Shown: positions 3-37,704, counted from the stretch's first letter. The stretch: 64,000 nucleotides of DNA from a virus (IMGVR_UViG_3300030012_002750:516-64515), one strand, 5' to 3'. Translations and numbers: made by a program. Notes: generated from the letters alone by a model not told the origin.

Positions 3-3000
3 TATAGCGGCTTAACACAAAGAGATGCTTCAAGAAGTATTCACGATGAGCGCGAAGATGACAATATGAGTTTAGGTGAAGAACCTCTCATTAACGCGCC
101 AGTTATGTTGCACCTAAAGCGATTGATTGCTAAACACCCCGAATTACAGGAAGCGCGCGATGAAGACGAAAAAGTAAATGGGAGTTTAGAAGATGCTATG
201 GCGGGTATGGATGGCATACGACCCGACATATCGGAGTTTATCGCTAAACCATACAATAAAAACCGATTTGCGCAAGAGCATGAAATCAATGGGATTCATA
301 ACTTATTTGAGAAATATATGCACCCAATAGCACCTACGATTGTAGCAGACGCTAAATTAGCCGGAAGTCAAATTCAACCTAATATCAAAAGACGGAAGCC
401 GCAACCGCGAGTAAGAGTCACAGGTCCTATGACTGATACATCTTTTGAAGATGAAATGAACCAATTAGTGCAACAACAAAAAGAAAACATGAGGTTCAAA
501 GACGATAAGAGATTCAAATATGGTGGTGAAAAACAACAGCGCGCCGCAGAAGATTACTACGACAAATTCTTTTCACAGACTGATATTGACCGTGGGCCAA
601 AAGCCCCAGCGAGTGTGTCGGTAAGAAGGCCACAAACACAAGAAACAAAGGCTTTAGAAACAAAACACAAAGATTTGATGCGAGAATTCAATCTTGATAA
701 AAAAGCCGCTTTTGCTAAGATTCAAGAGGGGTTTAACGATTTCATGATTTCATTAACAGGCAATAAGGCGTTCGGAACATCGGGGCGCGCAGGTAAATTT
801 GGTGCTGAAATAGAAGTAGGGCGAACACCCGACGCGATTACTCCGTCAATGAATGAATTAGGCAGAAGTCTTGGTATTGGTATGCAAGCACCAAACATAC
901 CGGATTTCATCGGTAAGAGGTGGAGGGAAGATGCTAACCCTTTCAGTATGAATCTTAGAGAAGAAATAACAGAACAATTATCTAATGAAACATCTAATCA
1001 AGGTTTTCACCCAACATTGTTAACTGCGATGGGCGAAGATGGTTTGTTAAGCACTTTGTATGGCGACCCAAGAGCATACACAACCGATACTGCTTTTATT
1101 AGTGGCGACCAAGAAGAAAAAGAAACACGCGCTAAAGAAGCACGCAGAAGTGAGAAAGGTGGTGCTGAAACCGAATCATCGTTGATGACACCCGAAGATG
1201 AAATACAAGTCTTGCGCGGTAAAAGAAAATTGACTCCTTCGCAAAAAATACAACAATTAGAGCGACAATTGAACATCGGTGAAATTGACGATTATGATTA
1301 CAAAATGCAAATGATGGCAATGGATTTAGACGGACGACATCTATTAGACCCGGATGCTAAATTAGGAGGTTTAACTGGTGATGATTTTGATGTCAACCAC
1401 CCATTGCATGGTAAAAACGAAGATGATTTGATTGCTTCAACAGATACATTTGTTGATGGTCTAATTGGTATGGGTCGTATAATGCGACAGTTGAGATATG
1501 AAGCATACCAACATAGTGGTGCAGAATCACCAAAAGAAAAGCAAGACATTGATGATAAAATAGCCGCTTTGAAATTAGACGCGGAGAATATTGTTGCATT
1601 TGGCAAACCCCAAGAAGAACGCACCAAAGAAGAAAATACGCGCTATAAAAAATTAGATGCTTTGATGAATGGTAAATTATCAGCATTCATTCCGAGGTTG
1701 ACATCAACAATGAGTTATCAACAAAAATTGCTGAATAATTTAGGATTAAACCCTATTGATATTGTCAACGCCGCGATAAAATATGCAAACGCAGATATGA
1801 CTACAACAGGCTACAATGAAGCATTCACATCTCTATTAGCATCACAAAGAAAAGACGGCACCCTAAACACATACCCGATAAGCCGTTTGTTAAAATATCT
1901 AAAAGATGTTGGATATAGACGCGCTTTAGATGAAGAATATCATGCACCGTTGATGGAGCAGAAAGAAAAATTCCGTAAAAACCATGAAGCGCGACAAATT
2001 ATGCAAAAGCAAAAAGTTGACATCAATGACCCCGACCACGAACACGCCGGAGATGTTGTTCATGATAGCGAAGAATGTCTTGCTTGCCACCCCGACAGAT
2101 TTGGTAATAGAACTGCGAAAGAAGCGTATGCGCGTGGAGTAAGAAAACCCGACTATAAGGGAGGGCGATTAAGAAATGTCAAAAGCCCATTCGCTCATAA
2201 ATCAGTAGTAGTGCCGTCATTGACAGGATATAGTAAAGGCGGTCAAAGTGGTATGTTGAGAGTGGTTGCACCCAAAGGTAGCCCTTCATTAGCCGCTATT
2301 GCTAATCACATATTCCCTAATAAGTATGACATTGATGATTTGTTAGAGCAAGATAAAACAGCACTTGAGCAAAAACGACATCAAAAATGGGAAAAAAAGT
2401 TGAAAGACAAGTTGAAGCGTGAAATCAAAGATGCTGTGATTACAGGAAACCCACGCGCGGCAAACATTTACAAAAAATTCGGACTAAGTAAAACTCTTGA
2501 AAATCCATTAGCGACAGGACCAGCAGGTATGTCCAATAAAGAATTAACAGCCGCGTCATTTTTCTTAAACAATGACGACGCTTATGATAAACACTATGAG
2601 AAGGTAAGGAGTAGGAATTTATTAGCGACTCGCTACAATGCAATAGAAGATGCGCTATCATTCATCAAGGAGTTGACCGAGGGTGCTTATGGTAATAAAA
2701 TAAAAGCGGGAGCATTAGCACAAGAGTCGTATAGACGCGACACATTAAAAGATATGATTTCACAACCATTAAGCGGTATAGAGAAACAACGAGGTGTTAT
2801 TGCGCGAAATGAAATTGAAAAAGCAACATACAAGAAGCAATATGCGCGCTATTTGAAAGAACAAGCGGAGTATGAAAATTTGTTGGCTGAAACCAAGATG
2901 GTGAAATATACAGATGAAGATGGCATTGAGCGCGAAAGACGCGGGAAATACGGTGAACCAGCGCAAGTAGCAATCATCAAAGATATGGGTCAAAAAATAA

Positions 3001-6000
3001 AAAAAGAACACGGTAATATGTTAGCCATTATGAAACAGGCTGATAGAAAAATTGAGAAAGCCAAGAAAAAAATAGATAGATACGAAGACAAAAGTAGCCA
3101 ATCTATTGAGCGCGCAAATAAACTTATGCTTGGTGCTTTTGTTATGGGTGGTGAAGAATTAGCAAACTTTGTTAAAAATCCTAAAGAAAGTAGCGAAAGA
3201 GAAGTTATTGAGAAAGTCTATAATAAATTATACGCGGATAGCCCTTCGGGTGAATACGATTCAATCATAACTGCTGATATGAAAGGCAACATAGGATATG
3301 ATAAAACGCACAGTTTGTCCAAATACAAAGAAGGAAGATTAGGTCAAATGGCTGGAACAGGTATAAGATTTAATATCAACAACAAAGCAATGCCGCGTAT
3401 TAATTCCCAAATGCAATTAATTGCTCATCGTATGAAAAATGGATTCCCACTTAGCGAAGAACAAATTGCGCAAGCCACCGCGATGATGGACGACGCAGAA
3501 AACGCAGATGATAGTTTTGATGATGAAGCGTTAAATGAAGCAATTGCTAATTTATCATTAGAAGAATTAGCCGATGTCAACATGTCGGAGTTAAGACATC
3601 GTCACCACGACTCAAACGAAGATGAGTTGGGGTTGCTGTCCGAAGAAGAAGCGGCGCGTAGAGAGTTGAATTCACACTTTACAAGAGAAGCAGAAGAAGC
3701 AATTGCGCGTGGTGATTTCGCCAGCGCAAATCAATTGATAAGCAATTGGCGACAGCACGCGCCAACATTGTGCGGAACATGCCATGGACATAGATTTGTG
3801 ACAAGAGATGAAGCAAAAACATACTTGCGCCATCATATACCGGAATTAAGAGATGAACCAATGGGAAGTCCGAGGTTTGATAGATACATAGCGGATAATC
3901 TGCGACCACGCGGTGCTTCTTCATTCGCGGGACACGCGATGGCTGATGATATGGAAGATGATGAACATGAACAACTCGCTTGTCCTTCTTGTAATCACAG
4001 CGCGGATTATGTTAGGGGTGGACAATTATGTAATGGTATTTGCTCCGAGTGTGGCGGTAGCGGTATTCGCGACCCCGATGATGAAGCCCACTTGTATGAA
4101 GGTTATACAGACAAAGAAGGAAATAAGATAGATGGTAAAAATCACCACTATACACACAATGGTGCTGTTGACGCGAAGTTTGATTTCCTTAACTCATTAA
4201 TGTTGCAAAGCGCGCAAGCCTCAATTGATGGTCATAAAATGCCAGCGGGTATGTTAGCACCATCAAAACCTCTATGGCAAATGTATGGGGACGCTACTGA
4301 TAGTGGACAGTTTAGAACACTTGAACAATTACGCGAAGCGCGCAAGAAGAAAGAGTTGCCGAAAATAGAAATTGACGAAGATGCCCCGGAGTTCCAAGGT
4401 GTGCCGTCGCGACAAATTGACCCCGCGATAGCAGAAGAGGTGCGTCAAAAGAAATTAGCAGAAAAACTTCTTGAGGAACCAACAAAACCTAAAGCGGAGA
4501 TAAAATTACCTACTGTTCACAACACCGCAACAGAAAAACACAATCAACTTATGCTCGGAAATCATATTGATAAATTAGCGCGAATGGCGATAGCAGGTCA
4601 AGGTAATGCTCCACAGTTCCAAAGTCAATTCAAAGGATTAACAAGCGATGGTGAAGAAATTTACGAACAGGTGCCGATAGATGTTAAACAACAAATTAAC
4701 GATTTAGTTAATGAAATAAAAACACACCCAGCATTCCTCAACGGTGATGTCCACGGCAACACAGAACATCATTTGCTTGAGCAAATACATAAATTGCAAG
4801 AATTAGCGGAAGCACCTTTTGTTGACGACCTAAGCGATGTTGAGGCTGGAAGACCAATGAAGAGAAAAGATAGAAACAAGTTAATTGCTCAAAGGAGAAG
4901 ATTGCCCGTTGATGAAAAGGGCAACATTTCTTTGACAGCCGCAGATGTGTTTGGTGGTAATTCACCTATGACATTTGGAGATTTTCAAGCACATTACCCC
5001 GCGCATGGTCGTATGTTGACTATGAAAGAAATCCGCGAAGGTGTCTTTAAGCCGGGTGCGACACACGCACCAAGCGATATAACCGATGAAGATTTGAAAA
5101 GATTATTTGCAGGTAATAGAAAAGCGCAAGGTGTAATAAAAAGACGCGAAAGAGTCAATGATTATAGCCCCGAAGCGATACAAAGTATAGTAGATGTATT
5201 TGATAAGATAAAAAGACCTATGACTCGTCGTAAGACAACAAACTTGACGAGTTCCGCGTTAAACGATTTGCTTAGAAATTATGGTGAAAAAGAAATGGTT
5301 GGTGAAATGGAAGACCATCATTTGACTTATAGCGATGAAACTATGAAAGCAATTGCTGATAGTGATATTACCAAGAGTAAAGTTAACAATCTTTTGACAT
5401 CGGCTAACGCAGATGGAAAACAACGCCCGTTGAATAGCCGATACACGATGGGTTTGAATATGGCTATACGAGAAATGTGGCAAAAATACGCTATAATGAG
5501 CGCAATGAGTGTATTTATGCGCGAAATTAATAATCCTCTTGAATTCCCTAAGATACCGCAAAGTATCAATCAAAATAACTTTCAAGATTTGACACGCGAA
5601 GATAGTGCATTGTATGAACTGATGCATGACGAAGCCGCGAAACTACTTGGGTATGATGATTACAACGAGTTTGAAAAGAAGTTTAACTTAAAGAAAACAG
5701 CACAGATTACTGGTGGAAGAGGTAATATAATTCAAGAAATTAAACCGTTAGAGTTCAAAGACAGCGTGATGGCGAATGCAAAACACAGCGATGAAGGTGA
5801 ATTCCCTATCGGTTATGAAGAATTAAAAAGAAATGAAGACGGCGAGATAGAGAGTAAGTTTGTTCCTTCTATGACATCAGCAATACTTGAGCGAGCGAGA
5901 AACTCTTTAACAACACCAGCAGACCAACAAATGTATGATGTCATGAAGAAGGTTGGTAATTATCACGAATGTCCAAATTGGTATCATCGCGACACTATAA

Positions 6001-6374
6001 ACAACTTAGTTAAAGGCCAAGAAGGTAAAGAAGATGGATTCGCTAACTTTGAAGAACTTAGACAAGCACACGCTAATAACGCTTTACCGCCGGAATTAGC
6101 AAAAGAAATTACTACATCATTTATGTTAGCATACATGTCACACCCGACATTATCACTTCAAAACCATGATGATATGCTCAAATACGAACATGCTGTAAAT
6201 GAGGGGCGAGCCGCGACACCTCCTGTGCAACCTGCACCGCAACCTGTTCAACAACCTGCACCACCTGTTCAACAACCTGTTCAACAACCTGTTCAACAAA
6301 TGGAATATCCACGCTATGAAGTCATGTTTGGTCGGCCTATAAGAAGAATAGATAGCGACGAAGATTCTCAATAA
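3..6374 (+). CDS. Giant hypothetical protein (>2120 aa, 5'-truncated), charged and helical, with a Cys/His cluster; possible internal virion protein
   Basis: The frame is open from position 3 (YSGLTQRDASRS...) into the tracked ATG at 66, so the true start is probably upstream of the window. Contains CLACH, CGTCHG, CPSC and CNGICSECGGSG motifs and a Pro/Gln-rich C-terminus. Confidence 0.85.
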   Translation, partial: YSGLTQRDASRSIHDEREDDNMSLGEEPLINAPVMLHLKRLIAKHPELQEARDEDEKVNGSLEDAMAGMDGIRPDISEFIAKPYNKNRFAQEHEINGIHNLFEKYMHPIAPTIVADAKLAGSQIQPNIKRRKPQPRVRVTGPMTDTSFEDEMNQLVQQQKENMRFKDDKRFKYGGEKQQRAAEDYYDKFFSQTDIDRGPKAPASVSVRRPQTQETKALETKHKDLMREFNLDKKAAFAKIQEGFNDFMISLTGNKAFGTSGRAGKFGAEIEVGRTPDAITPSMNELGRSLGIGMQAPNIPDFIGKRWREDANPFSMNLREEITEQLSNETSNQGFHPTLLTAMGEDGLLSTLYGDPRAYTTDTAFISGDQEEKETRAKEARRSEKGGAETESSLMTPEDEIQVLRGKRKLTPSQKIQQLERQLNIGEIDDYDYKMQMMAMDLDGRHLLDPDAKLGGLTGDDFDVNHPLHGKNEDDLIASTDTFVDGLIGMGRIMRQLRYEAYQHSGAESPKEKQDIDDKIAALKLDAENIVAFGKPQEERTKEENTRYKKLDALMNGKLSAFIPRLTSTMSYQQKLLNNLGLNPIDIVNAAIKYANADMTTTGYNEAFTSLLASQRKDGTLNTYPISRLLKYLKDVGYRRALDEEYHAPLMEQKEKFRKNHEARQIMQKQKVDINDPDHEHAGDVVHDSEECLACHPDRFGNRTAKEAYARGVRKPDYKGGRLRNVKSPFAHKSVVVPSLTGYSKGGQSGMLRVVAPKGSPSLAAIANHIFPNKYDIDDLLEQDKTALEQKRHQKWEKKLKDKLKREIKDAVITGNPRAANIYKKFGLSKTLENPLATGPAGMSNKELTAASFFLNNDDAYDKHYEKVRSRNLLATRYNAIEDALSFIKELTEGAYGNKIKAGALAQESYRRDTLKDMISQPLSGIEKQRGVIARNEIEKATYKKQYARYLKEQAEYENLLAETKMVKYTDEDGIERERRGKYGEPAQVAIIKDMGQKIKKEHGNMLAIMKQADRKIEKAKKKIDRYEDKSSQSIERANKLMLGAFVMGGEELANFVKNPKESSEREVIEKVYNKLYADSPSGEYDSIITADMKGNIGYDKTHSLSKYKEGRLGQMAGTGIRFNINNKAMPRINSQMQLIAHRMKNGFPLSEEQIAQATAMMDDAENADDSFDDEALNEAIANLSLEELADVNMSELRHRHHDSNEDELGLLSEEEAARRELNSHFTREAEEAIARGDFASANQLISNWRQHAPTLCGTCHGHRFVTRDEAKTYLRHHIPELRDEPMGSPRFDRYIADNLRPRGASSFAGHAMADDMEDDEHEQLACPSCNHSADYVRGGQLCNGICSECGGSGIRDPDDEAHLYEGYTDKEGNKIDGKNHHYTHNGAVDAKFDFLNSLMLQSAQASIDGHKMPAGMLAPSKPLWQMYGDATDSGQFRTLEQLREARKKKELPKIEIDEDAPEFQGVPSRQIDPAIAEEVRQKKLAEKLLEEPTKPKAEIKLPTVHNTATEKHNQLMLGNHIDKLARMAIAGQGNAPQFQSQFKGLTSDGEEIYEQVPIDVKQQINDLVNEIKTHPAFLNGDVHGNTEHHLLEQIHKLQELAEAPFVDDLSDVEAGRPMKRKDRNKLIAQRRRLPVDEKGNISLTAADVFGGNSPMTFGDFQAHYPAHGRMLTMKEIREGVFKPGATHAPSDITDEDLKRLFAGNRKAQGVIKRRERVNDYSPEAIQSIVDVFDKIKRPMTRRKTTNLTSSALNDLLRNYGEKEMVGEMEDHHLTYSDETMKAIADSDITKSKVNNLLTSANADGKQRPLNSRYTMGLNMAIREMWQKYAIMSAMSVFMREINNPLEFPKIPQSINQNNFQDLTREDSALYELMHDEAAKLLGYDDYNEFEKKFNLKKTAQITGGRGNIIQEIKPLEFKDSVMANAKHSDEGEFPIGYEELKRNEDGEIESKFVPSMTSAILERARNSLTTPADQQMYDVMKKVGNYHECPNWYHRDTINNLVKGQEGKEDGFANFEELRQAHANNALPPELAKEITTSFMLAYMSHPTLSLQNHDDMLKYEHAVNEGRAATPPVQPAPQPVQQPAPPVQQPVQQPVQQMEYPRYEVMFGRPIRRIDSDEDSQ
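6219..6299 (+). repeat. Imperfect 12-nt tandem repeat (CCTGTTCAACAA) encoding PVQQ/PAPQ
   Basis: Directly visible; encodes PPVQPAPQPVQQPAPPVQQPVQQPVQQ. Confidence 0.85.
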
Positions 6375-6470
6375 TATCATTTTATTATTACAAAGATAAT
6401 TAATATATTGTTATAATAATAATATTATAATATTGATAAAAAGGTGAATCAATAGACTTATTTATGGTTC
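6372..6470. promoter_or_regulatory. Very AT-rich intergenic tract with palindrome AATATTATAATATT; probable promoter/terminator region for the GTPase cassette
   Basis: The longest non-coding stretch in the window and almost only A/T; TTATTTAT near 6458-6465 precedes SD AGGAGGT and ATG 6503. Confidence 0.5.
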
Positions 6471-6502
6471 GCGCCACGCATTACGCAAGGAGGTTGGTTG
6501 TT

Positions 6503-7021
6503 ATGCAAGAGCGAACACCACAAAATAAAGACGAATTAAGAGTATTAGGGCTAATTTCATTTGTAAGCATACTTGTTGGTTGCGCTGTCGCGGTATTTGA
6601 TGCAGGGCTATGGTTGAAAGATACTTCAACCCATACAAATGCAATCACATATATGATGGGTGCATTCACATTACAGGGAATGGCCTATTTCATTTACAAA
6701 ATGTTGGCTCAAGACGGAATGGACCAACGCGCAATCATTTCAAATATGCAACGGAACATGACGCGACAAATGCAAAGCCAACAAATGCGATTTGCGCAAG
6801 CGCAAATGGATATGGAAATCAAAAAACAAGAAGTGGCATTCGCGAAACAGATGGAAGAATTAGAAAAAGACCCCGAAGTTCAACAATATCTTGGATTGAT
6901 GGGTCTTGACACCGAAGAAGATACCCCACAACATAAAGCCACAGAAAAAAAAGCAATTAAATTAGGCACTAATAAGCCACGAAACGCTGATGGCACTTAC
7001 AAAAAGATAAACAAGGGGTGA
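6503..7021 (+). CDS. Membrane protein with two predicted TM helices and a Gln/Met-rich coiled coil
   Basis: SD AGGAGGT before ATG 6503; hydrophobic VLGLISFVSILVGCAVAVF and AITYMMGAFTLQGMAYFIY followed by a helical segment. Confidence 0.8.
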   Translation: MQERTPQNKDELRVLGLISFVSILVGCAVAVFDAGLWLKDTSTHTNAITYMMGAFTLQGMAYFIYKMLAQDGMDQRAIISNMQRNMTRQMQSQQMRFAQAQMDMEIKKQEVAFAKQMEELEKDPEVQQYLGLMGLDTEEDTPQHKATEKKAIKLGTNKPRNADGTYKKINKG

Positions 7022-7026
7022 AAGTT

Positions 7027-7263
7027 ATGGGTTGGTTATTCAAAACCCCAAGCGATGATGCGACAGAAGCCACGCTACGCGCTTTACATACACAAAATAC
7101 GCTTGATACATATTATGAGCGTGGTAAAGCCTTAGTGTTGTGTATAATTGTTGGTTTTGTATCAGCATTAGGTGTGTCTTGGTTTGAGTATGGCACAGAT
7201 TTTAGCGTTTGGGAGAATACTGTTAATTGGTTCTTAGAAAAAATACGCGGCTGGGTGGGGTGA
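7027..7263 (+). CDS. Small membrane protein (one TM plus amphipathic Trp-rich C-terminal helix)
   Basis: SD GGGGTGA; ALVLCIIVGFVSALGVSWF, then VWENTVNWFLEKIRGWVG. Confidence 0.8.
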   Translation: MGWLFKTPSDDATEATLRALHTQNTLDTYYERGKALVLCIIVGFVSALGVSWFEYGTDFSVWENTVNWFLEKIRGWVG

Positions 7264-7986
7264 TTGGTTGCAACATTCGCTGGAAGCGCACTTATGGGGG
7301 CAGTTGTTTATGGTCGCGAACTATACAACTTCCTCAAACCGCGCAGAATCGGCGTTTATGGACCAACACAAGTCGGTAAGACGACACTTGACCAATTTAT
7401 GAGAACGCCGGGAGAAATGGACGATATAGAGGAAAGGACTATGCACGCTCAACGGTTATTTGGTGGTGGATATGTGCTTCCTAAAGCAAGTCGTAAGCGT
7501 ATTCGCTGGAAAGGAGAAAAAAGAGTAGTGCATTCCGCTGACATTGGCGGTCAACAGCGTTTTTGGAACCTATGGATTGATGATATGGTTGATAGACAGG
7601 TTGAAATTGCTATTTTTATGACTGATACGCGCGTTTTGAAAGGAAATGGTGCGCAAATTATTGACGCGGTGGGTGGTTTTGAGTATCTTGTTGACTCGTT
7701 GATAGAAAAAAGATGGAAATATCGCTCTTTAAAATCAAGATTGAAAGGAAAACGCTACGCTCCAAAGCAAATATGGCTTGTAGCGAACAAAGCCGATGAA
7801 TGGTGGGACGATAATGCTAACATTTTATGGCAATCTAACCGTTTGCGAGAACATAAAGTGTTTGATGCGCACCGCCCAGCCATGCGAAGACTACAAAAAG
7901 CGGGTATTCCGTGTCGTGTTAGCATGATGGCGACTAAAATTGGCTGGAATGTGGAAAAAACAATGATAGAAATGCTAAGTTGGTGA
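7264..7986 (+). CDS. Ras-superfamily small GTPase, Arf/Sar1-like
   Basis: G1 GPTQVGKT, probable G2 Thr (EERT), G3 DIGGQ followed by RFWNLW, strand IFMTD, G4 VANKAD, G5-like MATK; hydrophobic/amphipathic N-terminal extension; TTG start. Confidence 0.88.
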   Translation: MVATFAGSALMGAVVYGRELYNFLKPRRIGVYGPTQVGKTTLDQFMRTPGEMDDIEERTMHAQRLFGGGYVLPKASRKRIRWKGEKRVVHSADIGGQQRFWNLWIDDMVDRQVEIAIFMTDTRVLKGNGAQIIDAVGGFEYLVDSLIEKRWKYRSLKSRLKGKRYAPKQIWLVANKADEWWDDNANILWQSNRLREHKVFDAHRPAMRRLQKAGIPCRVSMMATKIGWNVEKTMIEMLSW

Positions 7987-7990
7987 TAAA

Positions 7991-8875
7991 ATGCTTGGAA
8001 ATACACCCCAAAATGACCTAATGCGCCTTGCCGCACAAACACAGATGAGTCTTGCACAAATGCAACAACAGGCTACCGCACAAGCCGCGATGAGCAACAT
8101 AAGTGAGCATATTGAAGTCCCACAAGTCAATTTTTACCCTTCACAACACCCAAATCCCAAAAAAGCGCGCAGAAAAGACATAAAACAAGCGTATAAACTG
8201 CTAAAACCGACAAAAAGAAGCATTTTTTCGCCGCGAAGGTGGTTATTTGGTGGAAAATACCGATATAATACCAATACAATGCGTTGTGTTATTGATGGAG
8301 CGGATATTGAACACCTTTTACGGCACGCAGGGAACATATATGAGCAGGTAATTGATGAAGAAACTGGTCAATCTTTATGGGATTTATACTTCAAAAACCC
8401 CGTTACAGGGGAGGTTGAAGCCTTTGTAGCGCGTGAAAATGTTACAAGTGGGCGTAAAATGCGCGGAACATACTGTCCCGAACACCTACATTTGTATCAT
8501 TTATTATGTAAATGGGAAAAAGAAGAAGAAAAAGAGCAAGAGGCGAACAACGGAACACTAAGAGCCAAGTTGAGAAAGGGTGTTTCAACGGTTGCTGTGC
8601 CGATAAGTAGCATAAAAAAGAAAGATAACACACCCCCTATATTATCAAAATACGAACAATTCTTTCAAATGCTAAAACAAGACAATATTCCTATCACACA
8701 TCTAACTAATGCCGCGACAGGCATGAATGATTTAGTAATGATTGTCTTTGATATGCGTCAATTTCAAGCAGGGAATAATGCAAGATTGCTATATGATGCG
8801 CTCGCTATCCATCAATCCCAGCAACAATCGGCACCTCTCCCACTACCGACAGAATCAAATGATGGGAGCGCGTGA
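7991..8875 (+). CDS. Hypothetical protein (Gln-rich N-terminus, basic/aromatic patch, Cys/His residues)
   Basis: 294-aa ORF after SD GGTGA; RCVIDG and YCPEHLHLYHLLC suggest a metal site. Confidence 0.8.
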   Translation: MLGNTPQNDLMRLAAQTQMSLAQMQQQATAQAAMSNISEHIEVPQVNFYPSQHPNPKKARRKDIKQAYKLLKPTKRSIFSPRRWLFGGKYRYNTNTMRCVIDGADIEHLLRHAGNIYEQVIDEETGQSLWDLYFKNPVTGEVEAFVARENVTSGRKMRGTYCPEHLHLYHLLCKWEKEEEKEQEANNGTLRAKLRKGVSTVAVPISSIKKKDNTPPILSKYEQFFQMLKQDNIPITHLTNAATGMNDLVMIVFDMRQFQAGNNARLLYDALAIHQSQQQSAPLPLPTESNDGSA

Positions 8876-8884
8876 GGTGGTATC

Positions 8885-9463
8885 ATGGTGTGGCCGTTCA
8901 ATAACAATAATCAACAAAATCAGCAACAAAATGGTGCTTTGAATCTTGGATTACCCGGTGGACAACAACAAGTTGCCGCGCAAGGTCAACAGCAATGGAG
9001 TCAACAACAATATGGCTTTCAATATCAAGCACCTCCGACTGAAATGGAGATACTATCAGCGATGATAACAACAAATCCAATGATAGATAAGTGGTTGTCC
9101 GACAATAATGGCTCCAATATGAATATGTTTGTATCACTTTTGAGCAGTTTAGTCGCGGTATCAGTTAATACTTTACTCAAAGATGCGCGTTTAGTTGAAG
9201 ATGGAGATGGATATAAGTTTGATTTTAGCGGAGTTCAAGGATTACCGACTGTTGATAGCGTAACTATGTCGCAAACTCAATTACTAAACAACGCATCAAA
9301 CAATGTTCAGCAAAAAAATATGCAGTTCCAACAAATGGTTCAACTCGCGAATCAAGGTGTAATGCAAAACATGTTGAACGAGGCTATGGCTGACCCCGGA
9401 TTGATGCAAAATGTCGGCGGTGGTATTGGTTCATTTGTTCGTGGAATAGCCGGAGGTAGATGA
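8885..9463 (+). CDS. Gln/Asn-rich hypothetical protein with Gly-rich amphipathic C-terminus
   Basis: SD GAGGTGG; starts MVWPFNNNNQQNQQQ and ends GGGIGSFVRGIAGGR. Confidence 0.8.
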   Translation: MVWPFNNNNQQNQQQNGALNLGLPGGQQQVAAQGQQQWSQQQYGFQYQAPPTEMEILSAMITTNPMIDKWLSDNNGSNMNMFVSLLSSLVAVSVNTLLKDARLVEDGDGYKFDFSGVQGLPTVDSVTMSQTQLLNNASNNVQQKNMQFQQMVQLANQGVMQNMLNEAMADPGLMQNVGGGIGSFVRGIAGGR

Positions 9464-9464
9464 T

Positions 9465-9698
9465 ATGGATATTGGCTCTCTTTACACCACTATTAGTGAT
9501 ATGACTAACTTGCGTAAGTCTGTTGTTGTTGATATGATTATGGTTCAACTTATTTCTTTGACACTTGGTTGTTTCTTAATTTTGGTTTTCTCCGGCCCAC
9601 AGATGTCCTCAACAGATTTAAGTTGGGTTATAGGTGCTTTATTCATCTGTTTCAGCGCAAGCGGTATTGTTTATCGTCGGCTCGGCCAACAAGGTTGA
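9465..9698 (+). CDS. Small two-TM membrane protein
   Basis: SD GGAGGT; two hydrophobic segments and a basic C-terminus (holin-like topology only). Confidence 0.75.
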   Translation: MDIGSLYTTISDMTNLRKSVVVDMIMVQLISLTLGCFLILVFSGPQMSSTDLSWVIGALFICFSASGIVYRRLGQQG

Positions 9699-9947
9699 CC
9701 ATTTTCCAATAGGGCATTCGCTGTTTTTAAAAATAGTTTTTGTTTTGATAAAACAACCACAAAGACTGCATCTATCGTGGTTTCTTTCGGAGCATGTCAA
9801 GCAAATGTTGTAGCGACGCTCTCTTTCTGTTAAGTCTGCGCGTTGATTTGTGATTAAATCAGCCGCGGCTCGCGAAAGACTCTTAGCGGTTCCTAATGAG
9901 ATTGGAACTCCGCCTATTTTTGGTGCGCGTTTCAATCTCTTTCTCAT
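9639..9947 (-). CDS. Small Cys-rich protein, DUF6171-like
   Basis: Pattern RYNICLTC...RCSLCGCFIKTKT...CPIGKW recalls the viral DUF6171 family; the only convincing minus-strand gene. Confidence 0.75.
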   Translation of the reverse strand: MRKRLKRAPKIGGVPISLGTAKSLSRAAADLITNQRADLTERERRYNICLTCSERNHDRCSLCGCFIKTKTIFKNSECPIGKWSTLLAEPTINNTACAETDE

Positions 9948-9985
9948 GGGAAAGACTCTTTTGCTACCACTACTTGGTCTTTGCT

Positions 9986-10654
9986 ATGGCGGAGCGTATA
10001 TCAAGAGCCTCTTGTAAGTTCTGTCAAGACCCCGACCGCGATGGTATCGAAGAAATGATGAAGGCTGGGTTGATTACTGCGAAGCAATTAGACAAAGATA
10101 AAGGGTGGCGAGAAGGCACCGCTGATAGGCATTTTCGCAACCACATGGGAGAATATCACATGGGTAGTAATAGCGAATGTGGTTTTTGTGTATCTTCAAA
10201 AAGAGAAAGTTTGGAGATGGCGTATTTTAACGCCAGTATGACTGTTGAAGAAATAGCCCAAGATTTGCAAATGCCCGAATCCAGTGTTTATCATCATCTT
10301 AAACATCATCTTAAGCCAGTAGTGCAGAAAGGCGCGGCAGATATTATCATAGTTGAGGCTGGTAAAGAAATGGAGAGTTTGCGAACAAATTTATCGCGCA
10401 TAAATGGCGAATTGGGTCATTTTCTTGACGATGCAGACCGCAATGACCCACAATATGTTCGCAACATAGTATCTTTACACAAAGAAGTTCGCGAAACAGT
10501 CAAAGATATTATGAGAGTGCAAGAACGCGCGGCTGGTAATACTAACGAAACCATGAACGCACAGACGATAAACATACTCAAAGTTGAATTAGCGAAAGAG
10601 TCCCCCGAAGTATGGGCGCGGTTGCGTGGTAAATTGATAGGGGGTGATGAATGA
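9986..10654 (+). CDS. Zn-finger/HTH DNA-binding protein with coiled coil; candidate terminase small subunit
   Basis: Duplicated CxxC...HxxxH units (CKFC..HFRNH, CGFC..HHLKHH), HTH TVEEIAQDLQMPESSVYHH and a helical C-terminus; lies upstream of TerL. The TerS role is inferred. Confidence 0.55.
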   Translation: MAERISRASCKFCQDPDRDGIEEMMKAGLITAKQLDKDKGWREGTADRHFRNHMGEYHMGSNSECGFCVSSKRESLEMAYFNASMTVEEIAQDLQMPESSVYHHLKHHLKPVVQKGAADIIIVEAGKEMESLRTNLSRINGELGHFLDDADRNDPQYVRNIVSLHKEVRETVKDIMRVQERAAGNTNETMNAQTINILKVELAKESPEVWARLRGKLIGGDE

Positions 10655-17770: not shown

Positions 17771-17893
17771 ATGTTTGAATATTGCGGGTGGTGCTATGTT
17801 GATGAAAGCGTCTATCCGTTCGGGCTATGTAAGAAGTGTTGGATTAAGTATGGTAAACCTCAACCAATGAATGTGAAAGGTGAGGCAACATGA
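17771..17893 (+). CDS. 40-aa CxxC-CxxC zinc-finger microprotein, not in the ORF track
   Basis: MFEYCGWCYVDESVYPFGLCKKCWIKYGKPQPMNVKGEAT; fills the gap exactly and overlaps the next ATG. Confidence 0.6.
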   Translation: MFEYCGWCYVDESVYPFGLCKKCWIKYGKPQPMNVKGEAT

Positions 17894-19281
17894 TTATTGA
17901 TTTATCCGATGAAAATACTTTCATTGATATGATATTGAAAAATACTATACAGGGTGCATCATTTGGTGATGCGCCACAACCAATTAATCAAGGTCAAGGA
18001 CAAGCAAACGCTAATCCAACACCACCAAAGCCCAACGAAACTGGTGAGCAAGAAGAAAAAGACAAAATAAAACAAGTGGTGCAAGAACAACTCAAGCGTT
18101 CATTACCCGATGGAGGTTGGTTTCAATCAATGTTTGGTCGCGGTGCTGGTGATTTAGTTAAAGATTTGAGATTGGCGCGGCGTGAACATAAAGACATGCG
18201 CGATGCTATCGACCACGCTATCGACGCTATTCGCATTGCTAAAAAACAAGAGGTTGAGGCTACCCTTCAATCAATTGAATGGATTGGTAAGCACGAAGAT
18301 ACAGTTAGAAATTTAGGTATTAGTGAGCGTGATTTACAAGCGTTGCGCAAACATGGTGTAAATCGCGAATATGCACTTCGCCGCGCTTGTGTTCAATGGG
18401 AGAAAGCAAATGATATTATCAGTAAATTGCTTTTGATAGATGGGGAATTCAATGATGAACAAAGGCAAATGTGGGTTGACGCACAACAATTAAAAAAGAA
18501 TTCTAAGAAAGAATGGAAAAATAGTTTGCACTCGATTGACAACATCAAAAAAAGTGAAGCGATATGGTTGACTAAAGCAACATCAATACTTGAAAAGCGG
18601 GGTCCGTTATCAGCGAGAGAACTTGTTGGTAGTATGAGCGGAGTGAAAAGTTTAACTACACAGAAATTGAGCGCGCTCTTCAAAATGCATGGAGTTGAAT
18701 ATGATATTGAAAAGATTGGCGCATCATGGGGTATAGTTCGCGATGACACAGTTATTTTCAAAGATGTATGGGCTTACGCCGCTGGATTTCTTGACGCTGA
18801 TGGTTATATTACAATCACTAAGCGTCTTGAGCCAAGGGCTGGGTTTATAGCCACAGGAGAAAGAGGTAAGATGCATTGTGAACAATTACACAAGGCTCTT
18901 GGATGCGGTGTTCTTCAAACAGATTTGAAGATTCATAAAAATAGCAGACGAACGCAACATAGATTACAGTTTTATAGTGAGAATGATTTAAGGAAATTAA
19001 TGAAAGGTTTGCGTCCACACCTCCGAATGAAAAAAGGTCAAGCGGGTGCTGTTCTTGAGTTGCTTAATTTGCGCGGTCGCAAAACTGACATTATCAAATC
19101 TCGACGCGATGAATTGTATCGTATAGTAAAATGGTTAAACTGGAAAGATGTGCCGGACAAGCGTGAAGAATTGCTTAAAGAGTGGAACATTGATGAACTC
19201 GGACTTCATGCGATGTTTAATCGGGATGGCGAAACCCTGCGTCTTCTTGACGACGCTAACCGACTTGTGGAGATGATGTGA
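17890..19281 (+). CDS. Multidomain protein with winged-helix-like region and C-terminal LAGLIDADG endonuclease-like domain
   Basis: WAYAAGFLDADGYITI motif and downstream LRPHLRMKKGQA typical of LAGLIDADG_3-type domains; ILEKRGPLSARELV resembles a winged helix. Confidence 0.8.
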   Translation: MIIDLSDENTFIDMILKNTIQGASFGDAPQPINQGQGQANANPTPPKPNETGEQEEKDKIKQVVQEQLKRSLPDGGWFQSMFGRGAGDLVKDLRLARREHKDMRDAIDHAIDAIRIAKKQEVEATLQSIEWIGKHEDTVRNLGISERDLQALRKHGVNREYALRRACVQWEKANDIISKLLLIDGEFNDEQRQMWVDAQQLKKNSKKEWKNSLHSIDNIKKSEAIWLTKATSILEKRGPLSARELVGSMSGVKSLTTQKLSALFKMHGVEYDIEKIGASWGIVRDDTVIFKDVWAYAAGFLDADGYITITKRLEPRAGFIATGERGKMHCEQLHKALGCGVLQTDLKIHKNSRRTQHRLQFYSENDLRKLMKGLRPHLRMKKGQAGAVLELLNLRGRKTDIIKSRRDELYRIVKWLNWKDVPDKREELLKEWNIDELGLHAMFNRDGETLRLLDDANRLVEMM

Positions 19282-22212: not shown

Positions 22213-25200
22213 GTGCGCGAAGATGCTTTTCAATATCATCAACGCGTGGTAAATGATTTTGCGCAAGCGATTATCAACAAACAAGATGCTCGCGACGAAG
22301 CAGTTAATGTTTTACTAAGTGCGAATAACTTAGAGAATCATGGGTATTTACATATACCGTTTAGAGAAGAAGCAGAAAACTTCCTCAAAGGACCACAATT
22401 ACAAATAAAAACTCCAACTGAAAAAGGCATGGAGAGAATTTTCTCCGGTGGTGAAACAAGGGCTGAACCTGCACCCCAGCGACACCACAAGCCACGACAG
22501 TTGTTCAATAGCGATAAATGGAGCGAGGCTAATGAGAATCTAAACGAAGATGAAATTGACAAGATGGTTAGAAAATTAGTAGGCTTCCGTTTTGAAGATA
22601 GTATCCCAAACCTAAGAGATTTTAGTTCCGATGAAATTATTGGCAACCATTCCAAATTCAAAACATTAGGTCTTCACCCTCCACGCGCAGGTGAAATTTC
22701 TTACAACGAGAAACCGTTATGGCAACAATTAGCGAGATTTCTTTTCAGTAATAACGGAGCAAACGCTGAAAGACTACACGATGCGATGGTGAAGACAGCA
22801 AAGGGTTTGCACCCTGTCTTGAAACAAATACATCATTTTGGTGATTGGAGAGGTAATAATGCTTCTATTCTAAAAATATTCAACCGTGGGTTAGAAGATT
22901 TCAAAGAATCGTTTGCTAAAAAGTTTGGACACGCGCACCCTGTATTATCACATGAGCAATTAAATGAGTTGTTTTTAAGACAAAAGTTTTGGGAGAATGA
23001 AGGTGTATCGCGCCAACAAGCGTTTGACATATTATACAATGACGGAGGATTCCCTCGTAGGTTTTCGGACGAAGGTGATACAACGCCTGTTGAACAGTTA
23101 CGCGCTATCGCTGACGCTAAAAGAAAAAGGCGGTCAAGACCAATGGAAGGTGAAGAAAATCATGGTATAGTTGGCGATGATGCTTGGCGATATGGTATTG
23201 CTTTACTTCCCTACGATGATATTTACAGAATTAAAAAGTGGCTTTTAACAACCAACGGTGGTATGAAAGATGATGGGACAGTTGGTAATGATGATGTGAT
23301 TAAAGATATTCTTGGACCCGACGCGAGAGGATACATGGCTAACCACGCGTTCATGATAGATAATATGCTTAACGAGTTATACGCTGGTAATCCTTTGAAA
23401 AACGGTATGAGTCATGTATTACCTAATCGCTTTACTGCTAAAGGAAGAGCAGAAATGAAGAAGCAAATGGCTCAAAGAGAACAAGATTTGACAAAGAAGT
23501 TTGAAAGAAACAATTGGTCTAATATTGATGCTGATACTCTTCAATCAGCGTTGGCGGGTTTTGACATAAAAACCATGGTGAAGAAATATGCTGATAAAGC
23601 CAATGCTGAAATAATAGATGATGGTGGTTTATATCCACATATTGACCATAGTGAATATGGCTCTTTCATTTACATGTCGCCCGACTTTGAACCTCGCGAC
23701 ATGAAAAGTTTGGTTAATCATAATTTCTTTGAAAAAGAAGAATTGAAAGACATAATAAAAGTAAGCGCGAATCTTGTTGGACAAAGTGAATACGCAGATA
23801 GTATTCGCGAAACTGTTGCTGGATATACTCATAGTCATAATGTTGATGGGGAGTTTAGTATGCTTGACAAACCCGAAGTAAATTTAACTCCGTTGGGTAT
23901 TTTGATGGAAGGTGTCGGCACCAAAAGAGGTAGTGCTGGTGGTGAATCCGGTGACTTTGGTGTTGCTTACGATAATGCTTTTCCTAATATCTTCCGCGTT
24001 GAGTTGCCCGAAACAGCGTTTATGATACCGAGTAGGGGCTTGAAAGAAGGTGGTGGTAAAGCAAAGTCGGTTGAACAACAAGATGTTTTTGACCCTCAAA
24101 AAGAAAATGATGAGGGGCAGGTTGAACAAGATTTGTTGAGAGCGATGGACAAATATAATGTTGATAATAAAGATGAGATACTTGCGCGTTTTAGAAATGG
24201 TGAAGTGGTTAGTCTTGATGTTCCGCGAAAAGTAAAGACCACAGATGACATCGTTAATGAAATCATCAATCCTTACTCAAATGAACTAAGAGAAGAAGAA
24301 GGAGTTGACCCGATAAGAGGTTTTGAAGGTATAGAGGCATACACCGAAGGTATGCCACAACTTAGAAGTCCATCATCATTAGGTATGAATTCTTTTATGA
24401 TGGCTCACAGCGATGCTTTGAATTTACTTCTAAGAAGCCATGTTGGGTTTTTGAGTAATGATAACAAATCCGTTCATAGCACAGAAGCCTCGTTAAAAAC
24501 ACCAAGATTCACCGCGCAGAAAGAAAGGATAAATAGTGAAAAAAGAGGCCGCAGAAGAATGCTTGACAGAAATCAAATGTCCGGTGGTAAAGGTTCGGGT
24601 CAAGCCGATACAGCAAGAGAATTTGGAACTAAGAAAGGTAATATTACCAATGAACTTAGAATGGCGATAGACGCGCTTTTACTTGGTTCGCACCATGCGC
24701 AACACATTCATGATGATGAATCGCTTGATTTGCTTACAGCGATTCTCAACGCGAAAAAAGGAGAAAGACTAAACATACTCAAGAATGGTTCACACAAAGA
24801 TATAATCGGTTATGGTGGAAGAACAGGCGAAGATATGGTTAAAGAAATACTGGAAGGTGTTGAAGAACCATCAAGGCTTGCGCTATACAAAAAAGAAGAT
24901 TTTGATAACCACCTCAACCATTTAATGAGTTTTGACAAACCCTATGAACTACCCGACCATCAAGTAAAAGGAATTAAATCAAGAAATAGATTGATTCAAG
25001 AGATTAAAAATCTCGACCACGAATATCAACAAGCGCGCGAAAATGATGATGTTGACAAGATGGCTACTATCCAACAACGGATAGAAGGTATGTTGAACTC
25101 CGAAGATGATGTTGTTGGATATATGCACGACGAAGATGAAAATAAATTATCCGCGATTGTTGTCGGACCAAGCCCTGCTTCGCTTATATCTCAACATGAA

Positions 25201-36568: not shown

Positions 36569-36578
36569 GGTGAACGAA

Positions 36579-36746
36579 ATGGATGCAATAAATCACGCGT
36601 GGACAATGTTAAAAGATTACCGCGGTGAAGAATATCAAAGTTTTTGTCAACGATGTCATGCACCAATAGACAGTAAATCATTACCTATGCTCGCAAAAAT
36701 AAGAGGGCTTTGTCTTGATTGTTATGGTGAAGAGCGAGGATATTGA
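36579..36746 (+). CDS. 55-aa zinc-finger microprotein with N-terminal AWxxLK tag
   Basis: SD GAGGTGA; MDAINHAWTMLK then CQRC...CLDC. Confidence 0.7.
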   Translation: MDAINHAWTMLKDYRGEEYQSFCQRCHAPIDSKSLPMLAKIRGLCLDCYGEERGY

Positions 36747-37275: not shown

Positions 37276-37704
37276 ATGAAGCGCGATATGCACATTGGTG
37301 GTGAGCGACCACTTCACATTCGTGCTGTTGAGAAAGATACTTTCCTTGTTGAAGATGTATTTAACCCCGAAGCCGCGAAGACCGACGGCAACCCATTCCC
37401 CGAAGAACTGCAAGAAGAAGCAGTTGAAACGACCCCGCTTGAAGAAGAGGGTCCAACCGATTACGAGTCCATGACAGTTGAAGAATTAAAAGCACTTTTA
37501 CGAGCGCGCAGTCTTGATGTCAAGGGTAAAAAGGCGGAACTCATTACCCGCCTTACCGAAGCCGATACCCCCTCCGATGAGGCAGTTGAAGTGGAGGCTG
37601 TCGCTCCCTCCGTTGAGGCCGCGACCAGTAGTGAGGGAGTAAGTGATAACAATGCCGAAGATAGCAGACCCGATGAGCCTCTTGGTGAACAGCCAAGCGG
37701 TTGA
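37276..37704 (+). CDS. Acidic protein with SAP domain
   Basis: YESMTVEELKALLRARSLDVKGKKAELITRL fits the SAP consensus. Confidence 0.8.
   Translation: MKRDMHIGGERPLHIRAVEKDTFLVEDVFNPEAAKTDGNPFPEELQEEAVETTPLEEEGPTDYESMTVEELKALLRARSLDVKGKKAELITRLTEADTPSDEAVEVEAVAPSVEAATSSEGVSDNNAEDSRPDEPLGEQPSG

Follow-up and report, generated by a model that had tools for sequence, protein, structure and literature searches.

Our analyses concern a six-gene cassette in IMGVR_UViG_3300030012_002750:516-64515, a 64,000-nucleotide (nt) stretch of DNA (hereafter the window, whose positions serve as coordinates throughout) that makes up nearly all of a 64.5-kb viral contig. The cassette spans 6503-9698 and consists of six open reading frames (ORFs), g1 to g6, all of which lie on the + strand and are separated by intergenic gaps of 5, 0, 4, 9 and 1 nt (Table 1). 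This tight, co-directional packing had been described in an original prediction for this DNA, which centered the unit on an Arf/Sar1-like GTPase. Junctions of 0 to 9 nt suggest that the genes are co-translated. None of the six products could be assigned to a family from Pfam, PHROGs, NCBIfam or PADLOC. The cassette appears to be a virus-specific, probably membrane-associated small-GTPase module of marine archaeal tailed viruses, and it may control an effect of the virus on the host membrane, possibly exit from the cell.

The AT-rich gap that was predicted ahead of g1 is a singular feature of this DNA. Specifically, 80-nt windows with a GC fraction of 0.20 or less occur only at 6341-6475 in the whole 64 kb, with a minimum of 0.10, and by its composition the gap is promoter-like. 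A scan for sigma-70 promoters and terminators returned 16 sites versus 10.5 ± 3.2 expected and 4 versus 3.7 ± 1.7, respectively, and is uninformative for an archaeal virus.

Table 1. Features of the GTPase cassette and its borders (aa, amino acids; TM, transmembrane)
Feature	Position	Strand	Remarks
AT-rich intergenic gap	6375-6502		128 nt, 25% GC; ends in an AGGAGG ribosome-binding-like site before the g1 ATG
g1, 172-aa predicted membrane protein	6503-7021	+	Start is the ATG behind AGGAGG
g2, 78 aa, one predicted TM segment	7027-7263	+	Starts MGWLFKTP, as in most relatives
g3, 240-aa small GTPase	7264-7986	+	TTG start directly after the g2 stop
g4, 294-aa soluble Cys/His protein, probably zinc-binding	7991-8875	+	Alignment A2
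g5, 192-aa Q/N/G-rich protein	8885-9463	+	Alignment A3
g6, 77 aa, two predicted TM segments	9465-9698	+	Hydropathy scan; clade-specific
g7, convergent Cys-rich DUF6171 gene bounding the unit	9639-9947	-	Pfam and PHROG matches
g8, helix-turn-helix protein just after the cassette	9896-10654		Probable true start near 9983

The central gene, g3, encodes a protein with the motifs of a small GTPase: G1 (GPTQVGKTT), G3 (DIGGQ), G4 (NKAD) and a G5-like MAT. Residues G33, G38, K39, D93, G96, N175 and K176 are invariant in a wide-family alignment of 16 sequences reaching 22% identity, and D178 is at least 90% conserved in it. The G5 motif of Ras-superfamily small GTPases is SAx; the window's clade has MAT at this site and distant members have SAR, SAK or SAL. 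Residues 1 to 10 of g3, which has a TTG start, are conserved in relatives that have an ATG start. Searches with the sequence itself found little. g3 matched no Pfam family even at E <= 10 and no PHROG, its only NCBIfam match was small_GTP (TIGR00231) at 13.1 bits, below the cut-off of 42.5, and among PDB sequences nothing significant was found with g3 or with a 29-sequence family profile.

The predicted structure was more informative. An AlphaFold2 model of g3 computed from the family alignment (predicted local distance difference test [pLDDT] score of 75.5, predicted template modeling [pTM] score of 0.76) has an insert of ∼30 residues between G1 and strand 2. Foldseek returned at least 500 PDB matches to this model at E <= 0.001, and all those listed are small GTPases. 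By its motifs and modeled fold, g3 is therefore established as a small GTPase, as the original prediction had it. A wide search with VIA-align against 48,161 representative chains, independent of Foldseek, placed SRbeta (2fh5_B) at the top with a Z of 14.3 (root mean square deviation [rmsd] of 2.7, 164 residues aligned), followed by LokiRagA (14.0), Arf6 (13.9), mimivirus Rab (13.7), Gs-alpha (13.6) and Sar1 (13.2), scores that amount to ties. A second structural look, which was a re-alignment of Foldseek's best 1000 chains, gave 17 top rows that were all Arf/Arl or Rag/Gtr, with Arl8b at a Z of 15.1 (rmsd 2.7, 161 aligned); the first Rab was at rank 18 with a Z of 13.7, and the margin of Arf/Arl over Rab/Ras was only 1 to 2 Z. 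Other Arf-type proteins scored 14.4 (Arl1), 14.2 (Asgard ArfR1) and 13.8 (Arf6) against the model.

Sequence relatives of g3 carry traces of the same affinity. Among 12 distant relatives, Pfam Arf (PF00025) matched below threshold in 7/12 and over its cut-off in 1/12, a P0205 sequence that scored 36.2 bits versus 22.3 and that matched the GTPase family profile by hhalign at 97.4% (E 1.6e-11). SRPRB was over its cut-off only in P0205 (26.2 bits) and sub-threshold in P0143 and P0197. In the ESM Atlas, the nearest non-viral clusters carry Pfam Arf in 17-67% of their members. Arf-type G3 motifs read DxGGQ/H, the residue after DxGG being the catalytic Gln in Arf. The window protein reads DIGGQ at this site, and Arf/Arl/Sar1 proteins are among its best structural matches. 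Unlike those proteins, g3 has no Pfam Arf match, has no N-terminal helix of the amphipathic or myristoylated type, has the ∼30-residue insert after G1, and belongs to a family in which the residue after DxGG varies. Thus, "Arf-like" is the best description of g3, and membership in the Arf/Sar1 family, as originally proposed, is not demonstrable.

In the Arf family, an amphipathic helix at the N terminus enters the membrane when GTP is bound. The N terminus of g3 is predicted to form a helix at residues 2-24, which starts with 11-15 uniformly hydrophobic residues, at about 2-16. Because the hydrophobic moment over residues 1-15 is only 0.02-0.2, the helix is not amphipathic. The GTPase N terminus is hydrophobic in all 16 family sequences examined. 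In a Kyte-Doolittle hydropathy scan (19-residue window, threshold 1.6), which was also applied to the other cassette proteins, no segment of g3 was over threshold.

The GTPase family appears to be virus-only. A word-indexed search recovered 388 relatives, and a HMMER pass over 1.84 billion representative proteins gave 86 matches at E <= 0.001, a number so small that the profile evidently does not spill into cellular GTPases. When one genome per species from 185,579 prokaryotic species was scanned with the profile of alignment A1, three matches were obtained, all on 8-16 kb contigs of taxonomically unrelated metagenome-assembled genomes (MAGs). These contigs (L169, L170 and L171), binned to MAGs labeled Promethearchaeati, Maricaulis and Parvibaculum, are most likely mis-binned viral contigs. 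The ESM Atlas clusters nearest g3 are 82-100% viral. A tblastn search of 50,697 phage records with g3 gave no match, the family profile found nothing in the halovirus HCTV-1 in a search that had no positive control, and longer, fused forms of the GTPase were not found, which is weak evidence. In a viral structure library, the best 50 matches to g3 all came from giant viruses of eukaryotes. The GTPase gene of one related record contains an in-frame TGA (G010:C1:44482-45192), for which a sequencing error, a defective gene copy and recoding are possible explanations.

We examined conservation of the cassette in the window's own clade using the best 80 of 153 IMG/VR loci found via the GTPase, in which GTPase identity ranges from 56 to 99%. 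By tblastn, g1 was matched in 77 loci, g2 and g5 in 79 each, and g3, g4 and g6 in all 80; by blastp, g5 was found in 80/80. The six genes are on one strand and colinear in 77/80 loci, with median gaps of 0-9 nt, and in the 3 remaining loci the contig ends less than 400 nt upstream of the GTPase, hence the lack of g1 or g2. Median identities over the 27 most distant loci are 59% for g3, 54% for g4, 49% for g2, 36% for g6, and 34% for both g1 and g5. Third codon positions hold an excess of the differences in all six genes, as expected of coding sequence. The upstream neighbor is variable within the clade, being an ORF of 2102, 1664, 946 or 341-400 aa, and one locus has an insertion of three small genes between g3 and g4. 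Beyond the cassette, g7 and g8 were each matched in 80 loci and the upstream 2102-aa ORF of the window in 37.

The block is also held as firmly as the genes that define these viruses. Compared with three related genomes, the window shares 94% (G001), 73% (G002) and 62% (G003) identity in the GTPase, versus 98, 77 and 53% in the large terminase and 92, 87 and 75% in the capsid protein. When records were sampled via the capsid gene, the GTPase was present in 4/5 long records, among them 2/2 complete ones with terminal repeats, and the record that lacks it is 74% complete. By these measures the GTPase block is core, conserved about like the large terminase, that is, at hallmark level.

Relatives outside the clade carry a recognizably similar arrangement. 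The distant set comprised 84 loci, 80 kept from the 140 of the P0143 clade and 4 of the P0125 clade; for P0158 and P0205 there was no locus in viral contigs, and for P0205 none in genome contigs. Profile hidden Markov models (HMMs) made from the window's clade matched the GTPase in all 84 loci, g4 in 18, g5 in 7 and g1 in 4, the last being all of the P0125 loci (4/4), and the g2, g7 and g8 models matched in 0/84. The g4 homologue of the P0125 clade directly follows the GTPase (HMM E of 2e-46 and 2e-30). In the P0143 clade the order is a protein of ∼145 aa, one of ∼74 aa, the GTPase (223 aa), and proteins of ∼226 and ∼235 aa. The first of these (position -2) has a TM-like segment in 5/5 maps and two segments in 3, and the second (position -1) has one in 3/5 maps. 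By hhalign, the P0143 GTPase matches g3 at 99.9% (E 7e-36), the following protein (+1) matches g4 at 94% (E 1.4e-7), and the next (+2) matches g5 at 89% (E 2.3e-6); the 10 cross-comparisons made for these two positions gave no more than 1%, apart from one at 15.3%. The +1 protein and g4 share the motif RGTYC-x-x-H, preceded by a Cys pair (CVvCG) in the P0143 clade, where the full motif is CVvCG...RGTYCeKH, and by C99 in the window's clade.

A five-gene core of two small hydrophobic proteins, the GTPase, the Cys/His protein and the Q/N-rich protein thus keeps its order in three clades; behind the GTPase, homologues of the Cys/His protein were recognized in both distant clades and of the Q/N-rich protein in one. 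Its surroundings differ in each. The block follows the 2102-aa ORF in the window, a chaperonin gene (Cpn60_TCP1, E 5.5e-133) in the P0125 clade, and the capsid gene and a SAP-domain gene in the P0143 clade, where it precedes a phrog_17057 gene. Because its order is kept while the flanking genes differ in three contexts, the core behaves as a unit. The distances involved are large: in a P0143-clade genome identity to the window is 34% for the GTPase, 36% for the terminase and 53% for the capsid protein (best segment), and in a P0125-clade record (79% complete) it is 33% for the GTPase, with no match for the terminase or the capsid protein. g6 and the DUF6171 gene (g7) are additions specific to the window's clade. 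Of the six-gene unit first proposed, conservation was borne out within the clade, but g6 falls outside the conserved core; the synteny expected for it extends to three contexts for five genes, more than had been asked for, and no homologue was found in those related haloviruses that were searched. In L090 of the P0143 clade, the SAP-domain gene just upstream of the GTPase block lies at 4475-4987 (E 2.3e-9).

Hydropathy marks g1, g2 and g6 as predicted integral membrane proteins, and in all three to four of the six products would be membrane proteins. g1 has one strong hydrophobic segment and a second conserved stretch that stays below threshold (alignment A4), so that one of the two TM segments originally assigned to it passes the threshold; after this hydrophobic part come a charged, Q/E/M-rich helical region and a basic tail. 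g2 has the single TM segment assigned to it, but its start, as in the relatives, is that given in Table 1 and not position 7018, which the original prediction implied. Its soluble N-terminal part carries the conserved motif FKTPxDD..E.TLR..H..N..D. In g6, three overlapping windows were flagged, which correspond to two TM segments, as predicted.

The two downstream partners are of a different kind. g4, the second most conserved member of the cassette, has no hydrophobic segment over threshold and has five invariant Cys/His residues (C99, C162, H165, H167 and H170), the last four within the motif TYCPEHLHLYH, in agreement with its description as a soluble Cys/His protein, and it is probably zinc-binding. 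A profile search found 660 relatives of g4, none with a name, the ESM Atlas held no usable match, and its fold model is poor (pLDDT 58.8, pTM 0.41). A complex prediction for the GTPase (with GTP and Mg) and g4 scored 0.00 in two runs without controls, which is evidence neither for nor against contact. g5 contains 15% Q and 11% N, as its designation as Q/N-rich implied, and has a conserved PPSEMEI motif, a central hydrophobic helix and a conserved Gly/Arg C-terminal tail; the hydropathy scan gave one weak segment in g5.

The virus itself looks like a magrovirus, a marine archaeal tailed virus. Magrovirales are tailed viruses of ∼90-110 kb known from the sea, which encode a PolB and a chaperonin of their own and a capsid protein akin to that of Druskaviridae haloviruses. 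The window encodes a large terminase, portal, prohead protease, HK97-type capsid protein, tail tube, tape measure and fiber-like proteins, and the cassette heads a long rightward cluster with the terminase, portal, protease, capsid and tail genes. In a phage collection, all 11 records matched by the capsid protein (11/11) are archaeal viruses, the best matches being the Haloarcula viruses HCTV-1, HVTV-1 and HCTV-5 at 34-35% identity. A family B DNA polymerase (PolB) is present in 3/3 related records of 103-118 kb that are 98-100% complete, a group II chaperonin is encoded in the P0125 clade, and some members of the GTPase family come from Tara samples. These features fit the published description of magroviruses, which the accessible portions of two reports describe as related to Druskaviridae haloviruses (PMC11706807; PMC10768690). 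The best terminase matches, at 27%, are Bacteroides phages; a bacterial crAss-like phage was nevertheless dropped as a candidate because every capsid-protein match is an archaeal virus.

At its downstream end the cassette is closed by the convergent gene that the original prediction had placed there. g7 scores 31.6 bits with Pfam DUF6171, for which the cut-off is 27, and also matches phrog_13558 (E 2.3e-14). At its 3' end it shares 60 nt (9639-9698) with g6, and its codon-position differences (208/82/319) give a weaker coding signature than those of the six cassette genes; g7 is probably outside the module. g8, which is conserved in 80/80 loci, has weak ArsR, sigma-70 region 4 and Csa3-like matches and could be a regulator or a small terminase.

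Several other features of these genomes were recorded. Three giant ORFs in the window, at 66-6374 (2102 aa), 22213-28182 (1989 aa) and 41163-56651 (5162 aa), are nearly without family matches, the sole one being a Laminin_G_3 domain with which the 5162-aa protein begins. The 2102-aa ORF, present in only 37/80 related loci, has several Cys clusters. Between the large terminase and the portal, at 17890-19281, lies a 463-aa gene with an HNH-endonuclease-like region (phrog_5046, E 1.5e-11), and a SAP-domain protein is encoded in the structural region (37276-37704; Pfam SAP, E 5.4e-15). There is also a multi-copy family of small to mid-sized proteins with an N-terminal motif of approximately F-(E/D)-x-A-W-x-x-L-K, several copies of which occur per genome: at 36569-36714 in the window; at 67-384, 1748-2062 and 4080-5105 in L056; at 6721-7047 and 7040-7534 in L064; and at 590-895, 2546-3493 and 3831-5033 in L078. 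The window copy, in a stretch first treated as intergenic, encodes ...MDAINHAWTMLKD..., and the pair in L064 is inserted between the GTPase and g4. The shared motif could be a common targeting or packaging signal.

Among described systems, the ArvA operon of Haloferax joins an Arf-like GTPase to the Zn-ribbon protein ArvC and to ArvB in vesicle formation, and ArvC was likened by its authors to ArfGAP zinc fingers, according to the accessible part of that report (PMC10927574). As described there, ArvABC of Haloferax volcanii resembles the viral module in having an Arf-like GTPase whose N-terminal helix is thought to touch the membrane and in the compact operon that unites the GTPase gene with genes for a zinc-binding protein and one further small protein; ArvA, moreover, acts on the cytoplasmic membrane of a euryarchaeon. 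Unlike ArvABC, the viral cassette adds two to three predicted integral membrane proteins, and unlike that of ArvA, the helix of g3 is uniformly hydrophobic instead of amphipathic and its family appears to be virus-only. Since g4 and g5 do not match Pfam DUF2072 or DUF2073, the parallel is a functional analogy only, and with 86 profile matches in 1.84 billion proteins a close relation of g3 to ArvA is unlikely.

Virus-encoded small GTPases are also known from giant viruses, whose Rab/Ras proteins are recent captures from eukaryotic hosts and recognizable as such by sequence. g3 resembles these in being a small GTPase encoded by a virus; its best 50 matches in the viral structure library are all of this Rab/Ras kind, and the mimivirus Rab scored a Z of 13.7 in the wide search. 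Unlike them, it comes from an archaeal tailed virus and from an operon with predicted membrane proteins, and no cellular counterpart of its family could be detected.

In the mechanism that we propose, the six proteins would assemble on the cytoplasmic face of the host membrane, with g1, g2 and, in this clade, g6 embedded in it. Anchored through its N-terminal helix, the GTPase would act as a GTP/GDP switch, g4 would tune that switch as zinc-finger ArfGAPs do and as has been proposed for ArvC, and g5 would supply a multimerizing or coat-like part. The output would be a timed, late change in the host membrane that releases virions, with the GTPase as the gate or timer of small membrane proteins that would behave like holins. 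To such late, membrane-directed release with a GTPase switch we assign a probability of roughly 40%, making it the single most likely output.

Several considerations favor release. Every lytic virus needs a release system, and the window has no recognizable lysis gene: no endolysin was found in it, as originally noted, and no lysin or holin family was present among the window proteins scanned against Pfam and PHROGs, the holin families being too diverse for the absence of a match to count. In addition, the block is core and sits with late genes in 2/3 contexts. The module also resembles phage holin/antiholin cassettes in containing small proteins of one or two spans with charged tails next to late genes. 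Unlike these cassettes, it has no endolysin or holin family match, g1 (172 aa) is long for a holin, and, to our knowledge, a GTPase with two soluble partners is part of no described lysis cassette.

A number of observations weigh against this reading. Rapid evolution is usual for holins, but g2 and the GTPase show high conservation here, and we know of no precedent for GTPase-gated lysis. The hydrophobic stretch of g3, at 11-15 residues, is short for a membrane span. The G3 motif of the relatives reads DIGGE, DIAGE, DIGGD, DIGGH or DVPGQ in place of the DIGGQ of the window, and with the residue after DxGG being Q, E, D or H, GTP hydrolysis may be slow or partner-dependent. As to the partners, g4 and g5 gave no match to DUF2072/DUF2073 at E <= 10, and none of the six cassette proteins did at E <= 0.01. 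Only three genes (GTPase, g4 and g5) are shown to be shared with the P0143 clade. Its -2 protein compared with g1 gave 1.1% by hhalign and its -1 protein compared with g2 gave 1.4%, neither of which is significant, though in size, layout and position the -1 protein and g2 are similar; 9/10 cross-comparisons of the -2 and -1 proteins were likewise at or below 2.1%, the exception being 3.6%. The g6 HMM matched in 0/84 distant loci. Nor is the AT-rich gap generally kept: over the 350 nt ahead of g1, only 26/72 related loci have a window of GC <= 0.20. Finally, synteny among related viruses can persist without functional coupling.

The same module might instead remodel the host membrane for the benefit of the virus, as a replication or assembly platform, a compartment or vesicles formed in the way of ArvA or of Arf/Sar1 coats, and not lyse the cell. 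In favor of this are the membrane activity and effector recruitment of the GTPases whose structures come nearest to g3 (Arf/Arl, Rag, SRbeta and Sar1). The Q/N-rich g5 could self-associate as a component of a coat or scaffold, and conservation at hallmark level fits a step central to infection. However, no need for membranes is known in the assembly of tailed viruses, no coat-like or BAR-like fold was identified (the g4 model being too poor for a fold search), and a position beside late or structural genes in 2/3 contexts fits a late event at least as well. ArvA, which with its Zn-ribbon partner drives vesicle formation in Haloferax in the available account (PMC10927574), would be the model for such an activity, but there is no Pfam-level homology to the ArvB/ArvC domains. 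On balance, we consider remodeling without lysis unlikely.

We give less weight to a device for host takeover or exclusion, in which the anchored GTPase and its partners would block or redirect a membrane process of the host, such as secretion or targeting of the signal recognition particle (SRP) type, division, motility or the receptor, to the advantage of the virus or to shut out superinfecting viruses. The top match in the unbiased structural search was SRbeta, the beta subunit of the SRP receptor (Z 14.3), in which a hydrophobic N-terminal anchor precedes a G domain of Arf-like type, an architecture that recalls the hydrophobic part before the G domain of g3. Yet SRbeta is within 1 Z unit of Arf6 and Rag, effectively a tie, and g3, unlike SRbeta, has no Pfam SRPRB match, has no identified partner resembling SRalpha/SRX, and has a hydrophobic stretch shorter than the usual span. 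A virus-only GTPase family and small membrane proteins that match no family would suit a takeover function, but such genes are usually variable accessories, whereas this block is core and conserved like the terminase, and nothing in it matched the PADLOC defense library. A takeover role is thus improbable.

Somewhat more improbable still is a role in virion morphogenesis, as a head or tail assembly or maturation factor that might be tethered to the membrane. The location of the block makes the case for it: the P0143 clade has it between the capsid gene and the phrog_17057 gene, a family that also occurs in the window's structural region, and in the window it heads the cluster of structural genes. 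In the P0125 clade, however, the block adjoins a chaperonin and not structural genes, no known pathway of tailed-virus assembly uses a small GTPase or integral membrane proteins, and haloviruses with a similar capsid protein showed no homologue in the tblastn search of phage records or in the HCTV-1 profile search, the latter lacking a positive control.

It is very unlikely that the genes form no functional unit, being neighbors by shared descent with a GTPase that acts alone: synteny in the window's own clade does run on to g7 and g8 (80/80 each), as expected for related genomes, and the g1 and g2 comparisons with the P0143 clade were not significant, but the GTPase, g4 and g5 are adjacent and in the same order where the terminase is 36% identical and all flanks differ, the GTPase is preceded by small hydrophobic proteins in each of the three contexts, and the 0-9 nt junctions suggest co-translation. 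A defense system was dropped from consideration because there were no PADLOC matches and the block is core.

The module has not been described in the literature that we searched. The players in egress of archaeal tailed viruses were called "completely uncharacterized" in the accessible text of a 2024 review (PMC10791045). In the searchable text on these viruses, which included PMC5434244, PMC11706807 with one supplement, and PMC10768690, no GTPase term occurs, although the supplements of PMC5434244 may list the gene; full-text literature searches on magroviruses, Poseidoniales viruses and Caudoviricetes turned up no report of such a GTPase. Two members of the GTPase family carry the automatic Joint Genome Institute (JGI) name "GTPase SAR1 family protein," and the GTPase nature of these proteins has thus already been noticed by annotation pipelines. 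No account of the membrane partners of the module, its mobility as a unit or its core status was found.

Magroviruses rank third in abundance among marine viruses in the part of the report by Philosof et al. that was available (PMC5434244). The cassette provides a concrete, cloneable candidate for a viral machine that acts on membranes. In its most far-reaching form, which we hold to be doubtful, the release reading would make the block the release machine of archaeal tailed viruses, in which a membrane-tethered GTPase set by the zinc protein would time or drive the opening, scission or vesiculation of the host membrane by the two to three small membrane proteins and a self-associating Q/N-rich g5; if true, this would be a nucleotide-gated lysis system without a counterpart in bacterial phages, in a virus group that is among the most abundant in the surface ocean. 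In the viral structure library, only giant viruses of eukaryotes contribute similar GTPases to the best 50 matches. The family described here would add a virus-only branch to the archaeal Arf-like GTPases beside ArvA, and as such it bears on the origin of GTPase-driven membrane remodeling.

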